From IMG/VR virus record IMGVR_UViG_3300025598_001701: a DNA stretch of 20,000 nucleotides, one strand, 5' to 3'. Position numbers and translations under genes: made by a program. Origin of the DNA: an uncultured virus (IMG/VR IMGVR_UViG_3300025598_001701). Lineage: Duplodnaviria > Heunggongvirae > Uroviricota > Caudoviricetes. Of this stretch, positions 9,309 through 17,428 are shown piece by piece (position 1 is the stretch's first letter; each line of letters starts with the position of its first letter). The notes below the pieces were generated by a model that was given only the letters and a program-made list of their open reading frames with translations, did not search any database and had not been told where the DNA came from.

Positions 9309-9348
9309 CTCTACCTAAAATATATTTAGGTAAAAGTGGGTATTTTTT
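9298..9348 (-). promoter_or_regulatory. Hairpin (terminator-like) containing TAAATA and masking the RBS
   Basis: ACCCAC-TTT-TACCTAAA-TATAT-TTTAGGTA-GAG-GTGGGT followed by a T tract. Confidence 0.6.
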
Positions 9349-9544
9349 ACTTGATAAGCAAACCAAGTTCTTTTAAATCTTCATATAACGTATGGTCATT
9401 AGGAATGGTTTCAGTTTTACCATCCTTGACATTTTTGACAAGTTTTTCAATATCTGGCGCAGCCATGTCTGTGCAACGCTTGATAGCGGCACGAACCTTA
9501 CTCCACTCAACAGTTCCACGATAACCCATGATCAACATTGTCAA
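9347..9544 (-). CDS. Small protein with weak resemblance to the ribosomal bL12 C-terminal domain
   Basis: 65 aa with its own promoter. KVRAAIKRCTDM..PDIEKLVKNVKDG...LYEDLKELG loosely follows the bL12 CTD pattern. Confidence 0.5.
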   Translation of the reverse strand: MTMLIMGYRGTVEWSKVRAAIKRCTDMAAPDIEKLVKNVKDGKTETIPNDHTLYEDLKELGLLIK

Positions 9545-9567: not shown

Positions 9568-9596
9568 AATATACTATATAGTCTGCGTATTGTCAA
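9568..9596 (-). promoter_or_regulatory. Sigma70-like promoter
   Basis: TTGACA-N17-TATATT. Confidence 0.7.
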
Positions 9597-9601
9597 GTAA
9601 T

Positions 9602-9803
9602 TTTTTAACAGGTGGGTTGCTATCCCCACGATGGTTTTAGTTTGGCCTGTAATTTCCGGGTTTCAACTGCCTTACGCAATCACCATTACCTTCCACAGGT
9701 CTCTCACCTGTCCAGTCCCGTTGATTTCGGTATGCATCCCTCACAATCGGTTTTTAGTTATACTCGCTCCAACCTTTTAGCACAGCCGTGCCGCCGTTAA
9801 AAA
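9602..9803 (-). ncRNA. Candidate structured non-coding RNA of unknown family (~200 nt)
   Basis: GC-richer gap with no convincing ORF. Ends pair (TTTTTAACGG / CTGTTAAAAA). Internal hairpins at 9779-9792, 9695-9711 and 9612-9629; helix 9682-9686/9631-9635. TAAATA 12 nt upstream. Confidence 0.65.
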
Positions 9804-9845
9804 TCTAATATAAGATATTTAAGATTGCGTGTCGTGCGGTTGATT

Positions 9846-10025
9846 TCATTTGGCATTTAATAATTTTTGGATTTGTTCTGTTAAATTTTTTCCAAGATTA
9901 ATAGTAGCTTCTTCTTCGGTCATAGCATTTTCTTTCGCCAATTCCATAGTAAGATAACCTTCAAATGCAATAACTGGTTGAAATATTTCTGGATTAACTT
10001 TAACTTCTGCTTTAGTAATTTTCAT
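9846..10025 (-). CDS. Hypothetical protein (MKITKAEVKVNPE..., 59 aa)
   Basis: True start likely ATG 10025 after AAGGA; the track's longer version runs into the tRNA. Confidence 0.65.
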   Translation of the reverse strand: MKITKAEVKVNPEIFQPVIAFEGYLTMELAKENAMTEEEATINLGKNLTEQIQKLLNAK

Positions 10026-10047
10026 TTTCTTTTCCTTTTTAAATATT

Positions 10048-10124
10048 TGGTGCGTCCTATGGGATTTGAACCCACATTGTCGGTGTTTTAGAGACACCCG
10101 CTTTAACCGTTAAGCTAAGGTCGC
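10048..10124 (-). tRNA. Amber suppressor tRNA (anticodon CUA)
   Basis: GCGACCT TA GCTT AACGGTTA AAGC G GGTGT CT-CTA-AA ACACC GACAAT GTGGG TTCAAAT CCCAT AGGACGC A CCA. Perfect 5-bp anticodon stem fixes the register; A4:A69 mismatch in the acceptor stem. Confidence 0.88.
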
Positions 10125-10972: not shown

Positions 10973-12058
10973 ATGGTTACATTTATAGGTAGAACTTTTG
11001 CCGACACTTGGGGTAATAGTAATGAATTGGGCAATTTAGAAAAAATAATTATCAATAATCTTTTACACCAAATTGAACAAAAATTTCCAAATGATAATAA
11101 TTTATTCATCAATACAACATGGTTTTTTATAAATCATTCTAATGACCAAGAAAATCAAAATTGGTATGCAGCAAAAAATTATGCTGAATTAAATAAAACT
11201 GGTAATCTCTTTTTGTTTTCTGGTGCTGATCCAGCGCCTTTTGTAGATGTTTTAGATCAAATATATAGGGTGTTTGCAAATTATAAAATTTATAAAATTG
11301 GCAATTTTGAAAGTGAATTTAATTGGCATTTAATATCTGTTTTAATTGGTGATAGATTTAAAAAATATACTGATGACGAAGTTATATTAAAAAACTTACA
11401 ATATAATTTTTTATCATACAATAGAAAACCTCATTATCATAGAATTGAACTATTTAAAAAAATGCAAAATAATAATTTACTAGAAACAGGATTAGCAACA
11501 TTAGGTAAAAATCCAATGCCTCACCATTCCATGAATGAAGAAGATGCAAACTTAAAATTATTATTGAATGAAAACGTTAAAGACTATGTTGAGCATGGTC
11601 ATTGGTATAATGATGATCCAAAAGAAGATTATGGTGTTCCACATGACCTTTTTAGTTTAGGTAAAATAGATATTTGGCAAAGTCATTTTTTAAATATAGT
11701 TAATGAAACTTGTAAAAATGATTCAACACAAGAATTTTTAGTAACCGAAAAAACACTTAAACCTATTATTGGTTTGCGACCTTTTTTAATAAATGGCGAC
11801 TTGAGATGTTATGAATGGTTACGACAACGTGGATTTAAAACATTTACACACATATTTCCAATTAATAATATTGAGAATCCCGATGTCCACGATAAAATTA
11901 TAGAAGTATTAATATGGTTAAAAAACCAATCAAAAGAAACAATAGTGCAAATGTATAACGATATGTTGCCTGATTTAATTTATAATAAAAATAGATTTTT
12001 TGAATTTGCACAAGAAGAAAAATTAAGAATAAACAATATTTTTAATGGTGCTGGGTGA
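10973..12058 (+). CDS. Hypothetical protein, glycosyltransferase-like
   Basis: FLSYNRKPHYHR...FLNIVNET...VTEKTLKPIIGLRPF resembles the GT10-like TEK motif. Very AT-rich and inverted relative to its neighbours. Confidence 0.6.
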   Translation: MVTFIGRTFADTWGNSNELGNLEKIIINNLLHQIEQKFPNDNNLFINTTWFFINHSNDQENQNWYAAKNYAELNKTGNLFLFSGADPAPFVDVLDQIYRVFANYKIYKIGNFESEFNWHLISVLIGDRFKKYTDDEVILKNLQYNFLSYNRKPHYHRIELFKKMQNNNLLETGLATLGKNPMPHHSMNEEDANLKLLLNENVKDYVEHGHWYNDDPKEDYGVPHDLFSLGKIDIWQSHFLNIVNETCKNDSTQEFLVTEKTLKPIIGLRPFLINGDLRCYEWLRQRGFKTFTHIFPINNIENPDVHDKIIEVLIWLKNQSKETIVQMYNDMLPDLIYNKNRFFEFAQEEKLRINNIFNGAG

Positions 12059-12127
12059 GGGACTCGAACCCCCGTTGTGGTATTCCGCCTTACAAAAGCG
12101 GTGCAGTCGCCGCTGTGCCAACCCAGC
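12046..12127 (-). tRNA. tRNA-Thr(UGU) with 11-nt variable region
   Basis: GCTGGGT/ACCCAGC acceptor stem, A73, CCA. Anticodon arm CCGCT TT-TGT-AA GGCGG. Variable region AATACCACAAC. T-arm GGGGG TTCGAGT CCCTC. Confidence 0.85.
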
Positions 12128-12529: not shown

Positions 12530-13306
12530 ATGCACTTTGATCTTATATCGGATTTGCACGAAAATTTTTGGCCACCAGAAGAAAATCTCAAATGGGAAGG
12601 TCTAGGCACAAGTTTAGTGGCAATTGTAGCTGGCGATATCAGTAATGATTGGGATTACAGCTACAGGAAGTTAGTTGAAATAAGCAAACATTATCGTCAT
12701 GTTATATTTGTAGATGGTAATCATGAACACGGTTACCAACCATATTTGCATAAACATTGTGCAGAATTTCAAGAAAAAATAAATCAACATCATAATATTA
12801 CATTTTTATACAAGAATGTTATTATTTTAGATGACACTGCTTTTGTAGGCTGTAATGGTTGGTGGACATATGATTTTGGTATGCCAGAAACATCAGTTGT
12901 TGACTGTTGGGATTTTCTAGTAGCAAATGGTTATGATGAAGAAAAAATGGCAGAAATAATGGCTGTTGCTAAAATAGAAGCAAGAAATTTATATAGCCAA
13001 GTAGAAACATTTAATGATGATCCACGTATTAATGACATTGTAGTTGTAACTCACACAGCACCATTGAGAAGATTTCGTTATGTCCCAGATGACATGGATA
13101 AAAGACACTTGGGACGCAGTGGCAATAGTTTGATGCAAACTGTGTTATTAGCAAACACCAACCAAAAAATTAAGGCTTGGTGTTTTGGTCATGAACACAC
13201 AGAGATAGATGAAACTGTGGATGGTATCAGATATATCTGCCACCCACGTGGTCGTCCAGAAGAAGGTATTGGAAAAGTATATTTTCCAAAACTAATCAAA
13301 GTTTAA
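12530..13306 (+). CDS. Calcineurin-like metallophosphoesterase
   Basis: SDLH, AGD, GNHE, VTHTAP and FGHEH motifs. Confidence 0.9.
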   Translation: MHFDLISDLHENFWPPEENLKWEGLGTSLVAIVAGDISNDWDYSYRKLVEISKHYRHVIFVDGNHEHGYQPYLHKHCAEFQEKINQHHNITFLYKNVIILDDTAFVGCNGWWTYDFGMPETSVVDCWDFLVANGYDEEKMAEIMAVAKIEARNLYSQVETFNDDPRINDIVVVTHTAPLRRFRYVPDDMDKRHLGRSGNSLMQTVLLANTNQKIKAWCFGHEHTEIDETVDGIRYICHPRGRPEEGIGKVYFPKLIKV

Positions 13307-13629
13307 GATTCTGGTTCAATTTTTACGTTTAGAGGAAAACTATTAGTGCGAGCAAGTAATGTAGTTTCTACTGCTTTACTTTCTGCAATTTCAAATGGTA
13401 AAACTGCAACGCTTGCACTGCCCTCATTATGAATTTTTTGAGTTAATTCATAAGCAGTGTCAAAGCTATGTTCAAAAATTTCTTGTAACACTGCGATTAC
13501 AAAGTCAACAGATGTTACATTGTCATTCATAAAAATGACTTTATACTTTGGCGGTGGAGTTAAATCATTGCGTGGTGCAATTTTAACTTTAGAACGTGTT
13601 TCTACTTCTGTGCTCATTTTTGCCATCAT
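13303..13629 (-). CDS. clpS: ATP-dependent Clp protease adaptor ClpS
   Basis: PPKYKVIFMNDNVTSVDFVIAVLQEIF...IHNEG...EIAESK...FPL. Confidence 0.92.
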   Translation of the reverse strand: MMAKMSTEVETRSKVKIAPRNDLTPPPKYKVIFMNDNVTSVDFVIAVLQEIFEHSFDTAYELTQKIHNEGSASVAVLPFEIAESKAVETTLLARTNSFPLNVKIEPES

Positions 13630-13682: not shown

Positions 13683-14123
13683 TTAGGATTTTGCAATAGC
13701 AATTTTCTTTGGCTTTTGTTCCTCTGGAATATGGAATTCCAAATCAACAACAAGCAAGCCGTTTTGCATCTTTGCAGTCTTAACTTCCATATTGTCAGCA
13801 AGTGAGAATGTACGGATGAACTTGCGACTTGCAATACCACGGAATACAAATTCCTTGGTATCTTCGCTCTTAATTTCACCTGTAATTACAAGTTGGTTAT
13901 CCTTAAGCGTGATGTCAATATCATCATCGCTAAATCCACTTACAGCAATTTCAATTTGGTAATTGGTTTCACTATTGCGGATAATGTTGTATGGTGGATA
14001 ACTTTGCTGAACATTGATACTATTCACACGAAGCATATCATCAAAAATACGCTCAAATCCAATAGATGTACGGTGAAGGTTATCAAAAAGTTTTTGGTCG
14101 AAGACCTGTAATAGGTTACTCAT
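13683..14123 (-). CDS. hsp20: Small heat-shock protein Hsp20 (IbpA-like)
   Basis: IGFERIFD, YPPYNI, IEIAVSGF, RGIASRKFIRTFSL, NGLL, PEEQKPKKIAI. Confidence 0.95.
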   Translation of the reverse strand: MSNLLQVFDQKLFDNLHRTSIGFERIFDDMLRVNSINVQQSYPPYNIIRNSETNYQIEIAVSGFSDDDIDITLKDNQLVITGEIKSEDTKEFVFRGIASRKFIRTFSLADNMEVKTAKMQNGLLVVDLEFHIPEEQKPKKIAIAKS

Positions 14124-14221: not shown

Positions 14222-15016
14222 TTATTCAATTATTTCAAATAAATCTGGATTTAATTCTATTTTTTCAATTCTTTTTTTAGACAAATCTGTCATTACTTGC
14301 TTCCAATTAGGTCCATATTTTTTTTCAAGTCCTTTTATTGTTGCATTTCTAACTTTTTCACGCCATTCGGGATTATTTGCTTTTTCTTGGCTTGTTTTTT
14401 TAATTTTTAATTTTGCTTCTTCTGTATGAGTTCTATTTCTATGAAATTCAGACATTTTAGCACGAGTTTCTATTGACCAATTTTTCTTTTTGCCTTTTTG
14501 TGAAGCACTCATTTTGGCAATAGATTCTTGTGTATGTTCTTTTCCTTTATTGTGTGCTGGTCTGCCTTTGTTTGCGGCAGACAATTTAGCACGAATTTCT
14601 TCGGTAAATGCAATTGGTCTGTTTTTTTTTGTAGCAGACAATTTAGCACGAGTTTTTGCTGTTACTATTCTACCTTTATTTGCGTTACTTATTTTTTTCT
14701 TATGATTTTCTGACATAACGATACCAGAGGTTCCCTCACCACCTAAAGTTTTATTATATAATACACCATTTTCTTCAATTCCCTTGCGACCATACCATTT
14801 AATAATTCGTCTTTCAATAGCAAACGCTCCTATTTCAGTCAGATTTGCTTCTAAAATTATTATTTTAGTTTGATCTTTCGGTGTTCTAGTATTATAATGT
14901 TTAGTCCATGCCCGATTTTTTCTACCTTTACCAATATAGTAAGGTATTCCGTTTAATTTTCTAATATATGCATAAACATAAAAACCTCTCGGATTATTTG
15001 TAGAAGAATAGGTCAT
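14222..15016 (-). CDS. Free-standing homing endonuclease (GIY-YIG-like with NUMOD3 repeats)
   Basis: FYVYAY...PYYIGKG..R...E...N..GGEG, followed by repeated ETRAKMS/HKKKIS..NKG units. Confidence 0.8.
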   Translation of the reverse strand: MTYSSTNNPRGFYVYAYIRKLNGIPYYIGKGRKNRAWTKHYNTRTPKDQTKIIILEANLTEIGAFAIERRIIKWYGRKGIEENGVLYNKTLGGEGTSGIVMSENHKKKISNANKGRIVTAKTRAKLSATKKNRPIAFTEEIRAKLSAANKGRPAHNKGKEHTQESIAKMSASQKGKKKNWSIETRAKMSEFHRNRTHTEEAKLKIKKTSQEKANNPEWREKVRNATIKGLEKKYGPNWKQVMTDLSKKRIEKIELNPDLFEIIE

Positions 15017-15019
15017 ATA

Positions 15020-15634
15020 TTAATGAGTCTCAATAATTTTTTTACAATTATTAAAGTGCCATCTTTTCATTGCTCCTAAAAATCCTTCTTTGAGACAGTG
15101 TGGACATTTTACATTTATGTTCATGTGCGTCGTGGATGATGAAACAAATTTTCCCTTGTTCCATGCAGTTCTTCCTTTGCAAGATTCAGATATTTTATCA
15201 GACCAAGTAATATTTCTACCTGTTAATTGTTCAGATATCTTTGCACGAACATCTTCTCTTTTAGATGGATTGTCATCACCTTTCATCACGATAGGTTTTT
15301 GTTCATAACCAAAACGAGAACCGTGTGATTTACGCATTTTTGCAACTTCCGAACCACCTTGCCCGTCTTCGGGAACAAGATTTGCAAACTCTTTATTTTC
15401 TGTAACATTCCATTTGAGACTATATTCCATACCTATGATTCTTGCTTCATCGTAAGTATTGCATTTTGCCAATATTTCAGTTGTAATATCATTACCATGC
15501 ATTTTTAGATGCCTTTTCCAATATGTTCCACTGCCCATATAAGAGTAACAAGTTTTTTCATATTTCGTAACATGGCGACAAAGATATTTTTTACCAGTAA
15601 TATTATGTGTTTTTAATAAAATATAAATTGCCAT
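15020..15634 (-). CDS. Seg-like GIY-YIG-type homing endonuclease with C-terminal CPHC finger
   Basis: IY..KTHNITGKKYLCRH...YMGSG...N; NPSK, AWNKG, CPHC..G....MKRWHFNNCK. Confidence 0.75.
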   Translation of the reverse strand: MAIYILLKTHNITGKKYLCRHVTKYEKTCYSYMGSGTYWKRHLKMHGNDITTEILAKCNTYDEARIIGMEYSLKWNVTENKEFANLVPEDGQGGSEVAKMRKSHGSRFGYEQKPIVMKGDDNPSKREDVRAKISEQLTGRNITWSDKISESCKGRTAWNKGKFVSSSTTHMNINVKCPHCLKEGFLGAMKRWHFNNCKKIIETH

Positions 15635-16797: not shown

Positions 16798-17046
16798 TTA
16801 GTTTGTAACGCCGAGAGAACGAAGTTCTTTCAACTTCTTTTGCCAACGTTTTGCAGCACGTGCTTTTGCTTTCTTGCGCTTCATACTTGGTTGTTCAAAG
16901 CGTTCACGTTCACGAAGTGTTTGGAAGATACCATCTTGCTGTAGCATCTTCTTCATCTTGCGAAGTGCCTTGTTGACATCATTATTATGGACTTCTACAA
17001 AGAATCCACGTTGTTTAACATTTTCAAGTTCTGGTCTATTAGCCAT
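16798..17046 (-). CDS. rpsU: Ribosomal protein bS21
   Basis: Start at ATG 17046 after GAGG. VEVHNNDVNKALRKMKK...GIFQTLRERERFEQPSMKRKKAKARAAKRW. Confidence 0.9.
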   Translation of the reverse strand: MANRPELENVKQRGFFVEVHNNDVNKALRKMKKMLQQDGIFQTLRERERFEQPSMKRKKAKARAAKRWQKKLKELRSLGVTN

Positions 17047-17428
17047 TATTTTCCTCTTTGATATAATTATTATGTTGTTGAATAAGCCAAGAATATATGT
17101 CAAGTGTTTGTCTGTGACAATATTCGGCAATCTTGTTGGACCCCAAAGACCAACAATTCTTTTGTGCAAGCAACCAGCCTTTAAGTAGTTCTTTGTTGCC
17201 GCTAAATCTGCTGTTAACAATAGTAGCATGTGAATGTTTATGTGCATTTATGCACCAAACATCATCTTCATCATTACTTCCGTATAAAAAAAGTGTAACA
17301 TCAATATCTAAATTGTTTATAGTTGTGCTTAAGCGTTCTATATCACTCCACTCAACATCAACGAGCAACACTTTAAATCTGCTATCTAAATCCATATCTG
17401 GTGCTGTAACAATACGACTTTCGTTCAT
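17039..17428 (-). CDS. Hypothetical protein
   Basis: 129 aa, overlapping both neighbouring genes. Confidence 0.7.
   Translation of the reverse strand: MNESRIVTAPDMDLDSRFKVLLVDVEWSDIERLSTTINNLDIDVTLFLYGSNDEDDVWCINAHKHSHATIVNSRFSGNKELLKGWLLAQKNCWSLGSNKIAEYCHRQTLDIYSWLIQQHNNYIKEENNG

Follow-up and report, generated by a model that had tools for sequence, protein, structure and literature searches.

Bacteriophage T4 carries two RNAs in its tRNA region whose function has stayed unknown for fifty years. These molecules, RNAC (species 1, 139 nt) and RNAD (species 2, 119 nt), are small non-coding RNAs (ncRNAs) encoded on the tRNA strand. The biological roles of the T4 tRNA-region RNAs are described as unknown in PMC3014915, and PMC9697503 lists RNAs of as yet unknown function and classes them as late. 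Here we describe an RNA gene of about 204 nt that occupies a comparable place, in the tRNA region and on the tRNA strand, in an uncultured virus of the Caudoviricetes (IMG/VR record IMGVR_UViG_3300025598_001701), from which a stretch of 20,000 nucleotides, hereafter the window, was analysed. Judged by sequence comparison, the RNA represents a new and well-supported family of narrow distribution, which is not astonishing since many orphan phage RNAs exist. In our view it is probably a free-standing, compactly folded and pseudoknotted ncRNA that T4-type jumbo phages encode in their tRNA region, and its role would be that of a scaffold or decoy acting in trans.

The RNA is longer than RNAC and RNAD and, in contrast to them, pseudoknotted. 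Furthermore, a canonical T arm (CCGGGUUCGAAUCCCGG, with the loop GGGUUCGAAUCCC) is found in T4 rnaC and is lacking in the RNA described here. T loops follow the consensus UUCRANY over 7 nt, and the loop of the hairpin at the corresponding place, P9, has 8 nt. When the covariance model R1, built for this RNA, was run with its filters off on the 8-kb tRNA region of T4, nothing credible was returned, the best match being 8 bits on 28 nt. The timing would differ as well, as the T4 RNAs are late according to PMC9697503, while this RNA is preceded by early-type sigma-70 promoter-like sites. By these comparisons, it is an analogue of RNAC and RNAD in position and not a member of their family.

GOLLD (RF02032) and ROOL (RF03087) are likewise orphan RNAs with an intricate fold; they occur in phages and prophages and are often found beside tRNA genes. 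They measure 500–800 nt, compared with about 200 nt here, and the RNA of the window has no Rfam match. Rfam 15 returned only three tRNAs on the window at the gathering score, and between 9450 and 9950, at E <= 10, only a chance match to CRISPR-DR41 outside the RNA. At the loci of seven relatives, searched at E <= 5, nothing fell on the RNA save a sub-threshold DUF805b match to the 26-nt P6 hairpin of the variant L137 (17.3 bits against a gathering score of 35.6, E 0.84), which is a chance match. No description of this RNA was found in a brief literature search. GOLLD and ROOL have recently been reported, in a preprint, to form RNA-only assemblies (10.1101/2024.12.08.627333). A catalogue of viral RNA candidates backed by covariation, for most of which no function is known, has been compiled from IMG/VR and holds 8,495 candidates from DNA viruses (Fremin et al. 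2023, PMC10690425); these come from the same data source and are objects of the same kind as the RNA described here. Six contig numbers that were looked up are not found in the supplement tables searched, and the family may already be among the unnamed candidates of that study.

A conserved non-coding RNA gene

Relatives were sought in IMG/VR and in metagenome contigs of the Joint Genome Institute (JGI) with exact and degenerate patterns of the element and with the neighbouring protein of 65 amino acids (aa); the collections were reached only via these patterns and this one protein, and candidates were filtered with two covariance models, R1 and R2. The RNA is carried by 25 IMG/VR contigs and by JGI metagenome contigs. 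All 30 sources given match R2, and they amount to 25 distinct sequences of 172–224 nt. The majority of these variants are 85–95% identical to the RNA of the window, which itself scores 240.2 bits with R1 and 233.6 bits with R2, and an identical copy lies on a 14-kb fragment (record G001). The divergent variants are L127/L166 (200 nt), L134/L167 (182 nt), L159 (172 nt), L129 (224 nt), L137 (212 nt) and L195 (224 nt), the last of which reaches only 40.7 bits against R1. Pattern loci that turned out to be chance were discarded, including 55 loci of the pattern TGAGAGA-N{8,16}-AAGGTAATGG, none of which was matched by the covariance model (the gap is 7 in the family), 8 of 49 early loci, the locus L107 and 9 of 29 metagenome loci.

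One of the carriers is a complete genome of 338,435 bp with direct terminal repeats. The RNA occurs once in it, and its major capsid gene is of T4 type (Gp23, 328 bits). A single copy was found in all four records searched, this genome included, and the CheckV completeness of the fragment carriers implies a similar genome size. Outside this group the searches were blank: blastn of the RNA against 50,697 phage records (INPHARED) gave no match, and the 6 kb around it matched INPHARED phages only in tRNA-Thr, in two records. When 185,579 genomes of prokaryote species were scanned with patterns, a first scan returned no locus and a second three, all of which are chance. For the 24 sequencing runs found to contain the stretch, the label is freshwater, lake water or plain 'metagenome'. 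As far as could be seen in the collections searched, the family is confined to a single clade of T4-type jumbo phages, uncultured and from fresh water, whose genomes measure ~340 kb.

The edges of the gene are well marked. On its 5' side conservation begins sharply at AUUUUUAACGG (9804), beyond which the upstream flanks of the relatives are unrelated. On its 3' side the conserved block extends to an A run at 9601, after which comes the promoter-like TTGACA-17-TATAGT/TATATT of the gene for the 65-aa protein. Going by the spacing from the -10 box, the actual 5' end may lie a few nt into the U run. G-U pairs in the helices P1, P2, P3 and P6a are possible only with the minus strand as RNA, and the RNA strand is therefore the minus strand. 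The gene is also a local maximum of GC content in AT-rich phage DNA (~0.30–0.40 in the window), with 0.475 at 9600–9799 against 0.30–0.39 in the flanks, as had been noted in a preliminary description of the locus made from the sequence alone.

That description had also stated that the interval lacks a convincing open reading frame (ORF), a statement in need of checking, as a plus-strand (antisense) frame of 62–63 codons stands open in the window at 9612..9800; antisense frames of 72 codons are likewise found in L129 and L195. Such frames would be expected if the locus were no RNA gene at all and held a short antisense protein gene, or if its conservation reflected a DNA-level site. This explanation is barely credible, given that the frames differ between relatives, where indels of 1–2 nt break or shift them, and that their peptides share no similarity. 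In addition, few stop codons are to be expected in an antisense strand rich in T and C, and the compensatory changes together with the strand-specific G-U pairs point to RNA. Short sense ORFs over the RNA are not conserved among the relatives either. The lengths of the variants (204, 203, 202, 200, 182 and 172 nt) are not multiples of three apart, and the longest open frame switches from one frame to another between relatives. With these length differences and with no peptide conserved, the sequence is not coding.

Helices and pseudoknot of the RNA

The features of the locus are collected in Table 1. Covariation supports nine helices in the model-fitted alignment A5, in which P7 is written as a pseudoknot. 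Of its 1270 cells, 93.1% are paired, versus 31.9–46.0% with slid partners, and 27 of the 52 modelled pairs are changed on both sides, compared with 7.6 +/- 1.7 in shuffles; none of 500 shuffles reaches A5 on any of five measures. RNAalifold, applied to the 14 close variants, returns P1, P2, P4, P6, P7, P8 and P9 together with a local hairpin at positions 31–49 (GGUUG/UAACU). The latter was rejected, as it is broken in L129, L137 and L195, where the long-range helix P3 is found instead.

Table 1. Features of the RNA gene and its immediate surroundings in the window (RNA position p corresponds to window position 9805 - p)
Feature	Window coordinates	Strand	Remarks
RNA gene	9601..9804	-	~204 nt
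Promoter-like site of the RNA, ACGACA-17-TATATT	9807..9835	-	9/12 matches; -10 box stops 3 nt short of the conserved block
P1, 5' strand (positions 2-11)	9794..9803	-	pairs with 9602-9611
P2 hairpin (positions 13-26)	9779..9792	-	GCAC/GUGC stem, loop GGCU
P3, 5' strand (positions 30-36), AGGUUGG	9769..9775	-	long-range pairing with 9639-9645
J3/4 conserved unpaired stretch (positions 37-54)	9751..9768	-	AGCGAG..AACU..A-rich
P4 arm (positions 55-61 with 82-87) bearing the P5 hairpin (65-76)	9718..9750	-	UGCA apex on P5
P6a (positions 89-91 with 115-117) and P6 hairpin (94-110)	9688..9716	-	near-invariant loop UGAGAGA
P7, 5' strand (positions 119-123), AUGGU	9682..9686	-	pseudoknot strand inside the P3 domain
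P8 variable hairpin (positions 125-139)	9666..9680	-	4/5 pairs changed on both sides
P3, 3' strand (positions 160-166), CCAAACU	9639..9645	-	covariation and sequence recount
P7, 3' strand (positions 170-174), ACCAU	9631..9635	-	outside P3, 3 nt past the P3 3' strand
P9 hairpin (positions 176-193)	9612..9629	-	5-bp stem, 8-nt loop GAUAGCAA; abuts P1
P1, 3' strand (positions 194-203)	9602..9611	-	A run abuts the -35 box of the next gene
Promoter-like site of the downstream 65-aa gene, TTGACA-17-TATATT	9568..9596	-	11/12 matches; conserved in all aligned relatives
Conserved 65-aa gene	9347..9544	-	in the window, TTG-start ORF begins 57 nt past the RNA
tRNA, anticodon CUA (amber suppressor type)	10048..10124	-	ARAGORN label 'Pyl'; 243 nt upstream of the RNA

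The ends of the RNA are joined by P1 (UUUUUAACGG/CUGUUAAAAA), in which 96.8% of cells are paired and four of the ten pairs are changed on both sides, the double changes coming from L137 (UUUGACGGG/CCCGUCAA). Three of the five pairs of P2 are changed on both sides, and L195 has GUGU/ACAC there. In P9 the same is true of two of five pairs, with 97.6% paired, and its loop occurs in the variant forms AGUAGCGU, AGUGGCGA and AGUAACGC. Between P2 and P9 the long-range helix P3 has five of seven pairs changed on both sides in A5; when it is recounted directly from the sequences, 156 of 175 cells are paired and six of the seven positions have compensatory types. Its pairing survives a complete change of sequence, from AGGUUGG/CCAAACU in the window to AGGUUGG/CCAGCCU and GGGGUGG/CCAACCC (L167, L134) and to the divergent forms ACAUUGG/CCAAUGU (L129), AUCGG/CCGAU (L137) and CAC(G)UGAG/CUCAGUG (L195). 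Several single-sequence folds also pair positions 30–36 with 160–166.

Three arms are enclosed by P3. All six pairs of P4 are changed on both sides. P6 is paired throughout (100%), with C-G replaced by U-A in three variants and with the loop UGUGAGA in L129 and L137, and all 74 cells of P6a are paired, by A-U, G-U and G-C types. A pairing of the GGU at 115–117 with the ACU at 47–49 was considered and rejected, as in L159 and L195 the former covaries with positions 89–91 instead. P8 is deleted in L159, L167 and L134 and is thus dispensable; the smallest natural form of the RNA, which lacks it, is 172 nt.

In A5 no covariation appears for P7, because L129 and L137 stand one column off at its 3' strand and the 5' strand of L195 lies in insert columns; P7 was therefore recounted directly from the sequences. 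This recount gives 121 of 125 cells paired and compensatory types at four of the five positions, with AUGGU/ACCAU replaced by AGUGU/ACACU in L129 and L137 and by GCGGG/CCCGC in L195. As the strands follow one another in the order 30–36, 119–123, 160–166 and 170–174, P3 and P7 cross, and the fold is a pseudoknot.

The most conserved parts of the RNA are all unpaired, namely J3/4, the P6 loop, J6/7 (..RGGYA) and the A-rich stretch that links the 3' strand of P3 to that of P7. The AGYGAG and AACU of J3/4 are kept in all 25 variants, save for one change in L001 (AUCGAG). These nucleotides probably form a tertiary core or a binding surface. A candidate tertiary contact joins positions 43–45 of J3/4 with 182–184 of the P9 loop, where two to three of three pairs per variant can be formed by eye, the evidence being mixed. 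An all-against-all scan of columns was too noisy to be of use, the majority of columns being invariant.

Most of the structure proposed in the preliminary description is borne out by these comparisons: it had drawn the pairing of the ends on the minus strand, which is P1, the hairpins GGCAC-GGCU-GUGCU (P2), ACAGG-UGAGAGA-CCUGU (P6) and GUGGG-GAUAGCAA-CCCAC (P9), and the helix AUGGU/ACCAU (P7), and all of them are present and kept in the relatives. It had also pointed to a motif, AACUAAAA(A)CC, occurring twice, and the motif does occur at 9759–9749 and at 9642–9633; it is not a conserved repeat, since the two copies are unlike in L129, L137 and L195, and the second is merely the 3' strands of P3 and P7. 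The pseudoknot suggested there, CGGG/CCCG (9720–9717 with 9660–9657), has to be abandoned. Its CGG serves P4 as the 3' strand and covaries with positions 55–57 (CCG/CGG, CCA/UGG, CUA/UAG and ACG/CGU). The CCCG segment is absent from L159, and L129, L137 and L195 offer no complement to it; the real pseudoknot is that of P3 and P7.

Genomic neighbourhood

In the window the RNA lies between a 59-aa ORF (10025..9846) and the 65-aa ORF (9544..9347), both on the minus strand. The downstream neighbour is nearly constant: the RNA precedes it in 18 of the 19 loci found via the 65-aa protein, and in L195 as well, at a distance of ~55 nt in the relatives and of 81 nt in L195. The family of this protein is as narrow as that of the RNA, with 15 clusters of >=77% identity, none of them named. 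AlphaFold predicts a beta-alpha-alpha-beta-alpha-beta fold (pLDDT 93.2), and the model has weak PDB matches to ClpS and to the C-terminal domain (CTD) of L7/L12 (best E 6.6e-3, TM 0.64). The protein was considered as a partner of the RNA and set aside, since a predicted ClpS/L7-L12-CTD-like fold, as far as these weak matches go, is not a known RNA-binding fold. Identities of RNA and gene to the window do not track each other, being 94.6% and 74.7% in L138 and 63.9% and 84.5% in L129, respectively, which suggests recombination between separate modules and not co-evolution.

Three minus-strand tRNAs are found in the window by ARAGORN and Rfam, for Gln, with the anticodon CUA (10048–10124) and for Thr. 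A tRNA-Thr (UGU), a CUA tRNA or both lie upstream of the RNA on the same strand in 13 of the 15 relatives' loci scanned; the CUA tRNA is present in six of these 15, in addition to the window. When TAG is read as Gln, none of the main ORFs of the window is lengthened, and TAG recoding is not evident here. The tRNA-Thr of the window (12046–12127) measures 82 nt by ARAGORN, above the usual length for Thr, and a plus-strand ORF of 361 aa (10973–12058) ends inside this minus-strand gene, overlapping it by 13 nt.

The upstream side of the RNA, 9805–10047 in the window and the equivalent spot in L001, L004, L009, L126 and L127, is a hot spot of gene content with at least four contexts. The simplest of them, in L127, consists of tRNA-Thr, a 260-aa ORF and then the RNA, and in the contexts of L004 and the window small ORFs have been added and the CUA tRNA inserted. 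ORFs of the window match phage families such as a nucleotide-sugar epimerase, a UvdE-type endonuclease, a carbamoyltransferase, Hsp20, ClpS, an IMPDH-like dehydrogenase, ribosomal protein S21, NUMOD3 homing-endonuclease-like proteins and a CsgF-like protein; the remaining neighbours of the RNA in L004 and in the window have no Pfam or PHROG family. Among these genes, two tandem NUMOD3-motif homing-endonuclease-like genes (14222–15016 and 15020–15634, minus strand) adjoin the IMPDH-like gene. Host-like auxiliary genes, all on the minus strand, encode an S21 domain within a 149-aa ORF (16798–17247), ClpS (13303–13629), Hsp20 (13683–14123) and the CsgF-like protein (1–429).

Transcription, possible modes of action and meaning

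Beyond the gene and its fold we infer transcription, independence as a transcript, action in trans and any partner. The host sigma-70 RNA polymerase would transcribe the RNA from an early-type promoter of its own. Besides the site in the window (Table 1), stronger ones, TTGACA-17-TACAAT or TATATT, stand at the same place in the L004-type variants and in L134, L137 and L195. In L195 the end of the transcript would be marked by a canonical intrinsic terminator (AACCCCUACGGGGGUUUUUU) a few nt after P1 (1122–1145, plus strand), which is followed by the promoter of the next gene. The 3' half of this terminator (ACGGG) is complementary to the 3' strand of P1 (CCCGU), and an alternative pairing of the two is conceivable. 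In relatives where the RNA directly follows an ORF, which there has 260–269 aa, ends in ...LWT and is itself downstream of tRNA-Thr, the RNA would be co-transcribed with it by read-through from the tRNA-region operon and, if free, would have to be cut out. Once made, the transcript would be closed at its ends by P1 and would hold the hairpin P2, the long-range P3 around three arms (P4/P5, P6a/P6 and P8) and the hairpin P9. P7 would link the interior of the P3 domain with the nucleotides that directly follow P3 on its 3' side, locking the core as a pseudoknot. The RNA would then work in trans, either as a scaffold or as a decoy, by binding a protein or a component of the host's machinery for translation or tRNA processing; it would not be a cis regulator of a neighbouring gene.

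Several observations weigh against this account. The fold energy of the single sequence is unremarkable (z = -1.33, with 17 of 200 shuffles folding equally well or better), and because it is no better than chance, the case for structure rests on comparison. The alignment A5 was itself fitted to the structure model and its sequences are related, so that its statistics overstate independence, and the bulk of the compensatory changes comes from three divergent lineages (L129/L137, L195 and L159/L167). Promoters and terminators were called by match to a consensus only; the region of the window holds two promoter-like sites where 2.7 +/- 1.7 are expected by chance, and a terminator follows the RNA in L195 only, one of the 25 variants. 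In the L001, L020, L023, L025, L033, L034, L127 and L129 types, the RNA begins 3–8 nt after the upstream stop codon with no obvious promoter, and an RNA right behind a stop codon without a promoter could be part of the 3' end of an mRNA. No RNA run is among the 24 runs found to hold the stretch, all of which are on record as DNA from freshwater, and no result indicates a partner or an activity. Lastly, the constancy of the 65-aa neighbour fits a cis relation and a partner relation equally well.

The main rival to the free-standing RNA draws on the last of these points and takes the element as a cis element of a flanking mRNA, either the 5' leader of the 65-aa gene, riboswitch-like or protein-binding, or the 3' end of the upstream mRNA. 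The strict synteny with the 65-aa gene and the close spacing behind a stop codon in many relatives would both follow, and the pairing of CCCGU in P1 with the terminator's ACGGG in L195 may be read as an expression platform. It is nonetheless rather unlikely: a strong promoter, conserved in all relatives, splits the RNA from the gene, the terminator of L195 precedes that promoter, and the other 24 variants have neither a terminator nor a platform that sequesters the ribosome-binding site. Additionally, the divergence of the RNA is uncoupled from that of the gene, and relatives do not share the same upstream gene, four contexts being found. A stable RNA cut from a tRNA-containing precursor by the tRNA-processing enzymes, with the P1 and P9 stack as a mimic of acceptor and T arm, would be an analogue or a much-altered descendant of RNAC and RNAD. 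This origin accords with a position and strand shared with the tRNAs in T4-type phages, as T4 has rnaC and rnaD in its tRNA region, with the paired ends, the hairpin abutting the 3' strand of the closing stem and the short hairpin at the place of the D arm, and some such cut would be needed for release where a promoter is absent. We consider it quite unlikely, since P1 has 10–11 bp and not 7, there is no CCA or discriminator, an A run and the next promoter follow P1, and the P9 loop is not a T loop of the kind that T4 rnaC has; ARAGORN and RF00005 make no tRNA call on the RNA, and the covariance model is blank in the T4 tRNA region. Catalysis, in the form of a self-cleaving ribozyme or of one acting on other RNAs, for example a minimal core working on tRNA-region transcripts, is suggested by the compact pseudoknotted core with its long invariant unpaired stretches, features typical of catalytic RNAs and aptamers. 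RNase P (P2/P4) and group I introns (P3/P7) likewise have a closing stem and a long-range knot in which the inner helix has its 3' strand a few nucleotides after that of the enclosing helix, and the strand order of P3 and P7 here resembles these knots in topology only. A ribozyme is very doubtful all the same. Neither the window (E <= 10) nor the seven relatives (E <= 5) gave an Rfam match to a ribozyme, RNase P or group I model, and the conserved core motifs familiar from RNase P and group I introns are not seen. The RNA is smaller than bacterial RNase P RNAs and has no exons or splice-site features, its flanks being separate small ORFs with a stop codon upstream, a promoter downstream and an upstream side that varies.

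The apex of P5 raises a further question, that of self-association. A hexamer N-UGCA-N' with complementary N and N' is found in 23 of 25 variants (AUGCAU in 14, CUGCAG in eight, GUGCAC in one), while L129 and L137 have other hairpins at this site without the UGCA element. Through this self-complementary apex, one copy of the RNA might kiss a second, as at the dimerisation site of HIV-1, to give a homodimer or a larger RNA-only assembly. In the predicted fold of the common form, a G.A mismatch leaves an open loop of 8 nt, purine-palindrome-A, which would display the hexamer between purines. The pattern is ambiguous and self-association a distinct but minor possibility, as UGCA with any closing pair is a 6-nt palindrome by construction and ordinary stem covariation explains the pattern. 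The predicted P5 of L195 is a continuous 5-bp stem with a plain, closed UGCA tetraloop. The palindromes that L129 and L137 do have (CUUCGAAG and UCUAGA) are not clearly apical, and we estimate that a 6-mer palindrome is expected by chance within ~30 nt in roughly a third of cases. Release by processing, homodimerisation and catalysis are non-exclusive refinements of the free-standing RNA acting in trans. A bolder version, in which a new RNA machine of T4-type jumbo phages either provides a catalytic core for tRNA-region or host RNAs or, as a homodimer joined at the UGCA apex, disables a host factor of translation or tRNA surveillance early in infection, is unlikely.

The free-standing, unclassified phage RNA, not a riboswitch, that was proposed at the outset is thus the interpretation that we retain, with transcription inferred: homologues exist and covary, no ORF is conserved on either strand, promoter-like sites precede the RNA in the window and in several relatives, and no known class is recognised by Rfam 15 in the window or at the relatives' loci. 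The downstream gene was rightly said to have its own promoter, and that promoter is conserved in the relatives.

The RNA should be a tractable object, as its small size (172–224 nt), its defined fold and the natural minimal forms without P8 lend themselves to probing, to cryo-EM or crystallography and to pull-downs. Were it catalytic, ligand-binding or self-assembling, it would constitute a new RNA class, and a decoy function, if real, may hint at a host defence directed at tRNA or translation. In a place equivalent to that of the two T4 RNAs, T4-type jumbo phages that are distant and uncultured have an RNA that is unrelated to these two and more elaborate, which argues that a structured RNA beside the tRNAs answers a recurrent need and is not an oddity of T4.

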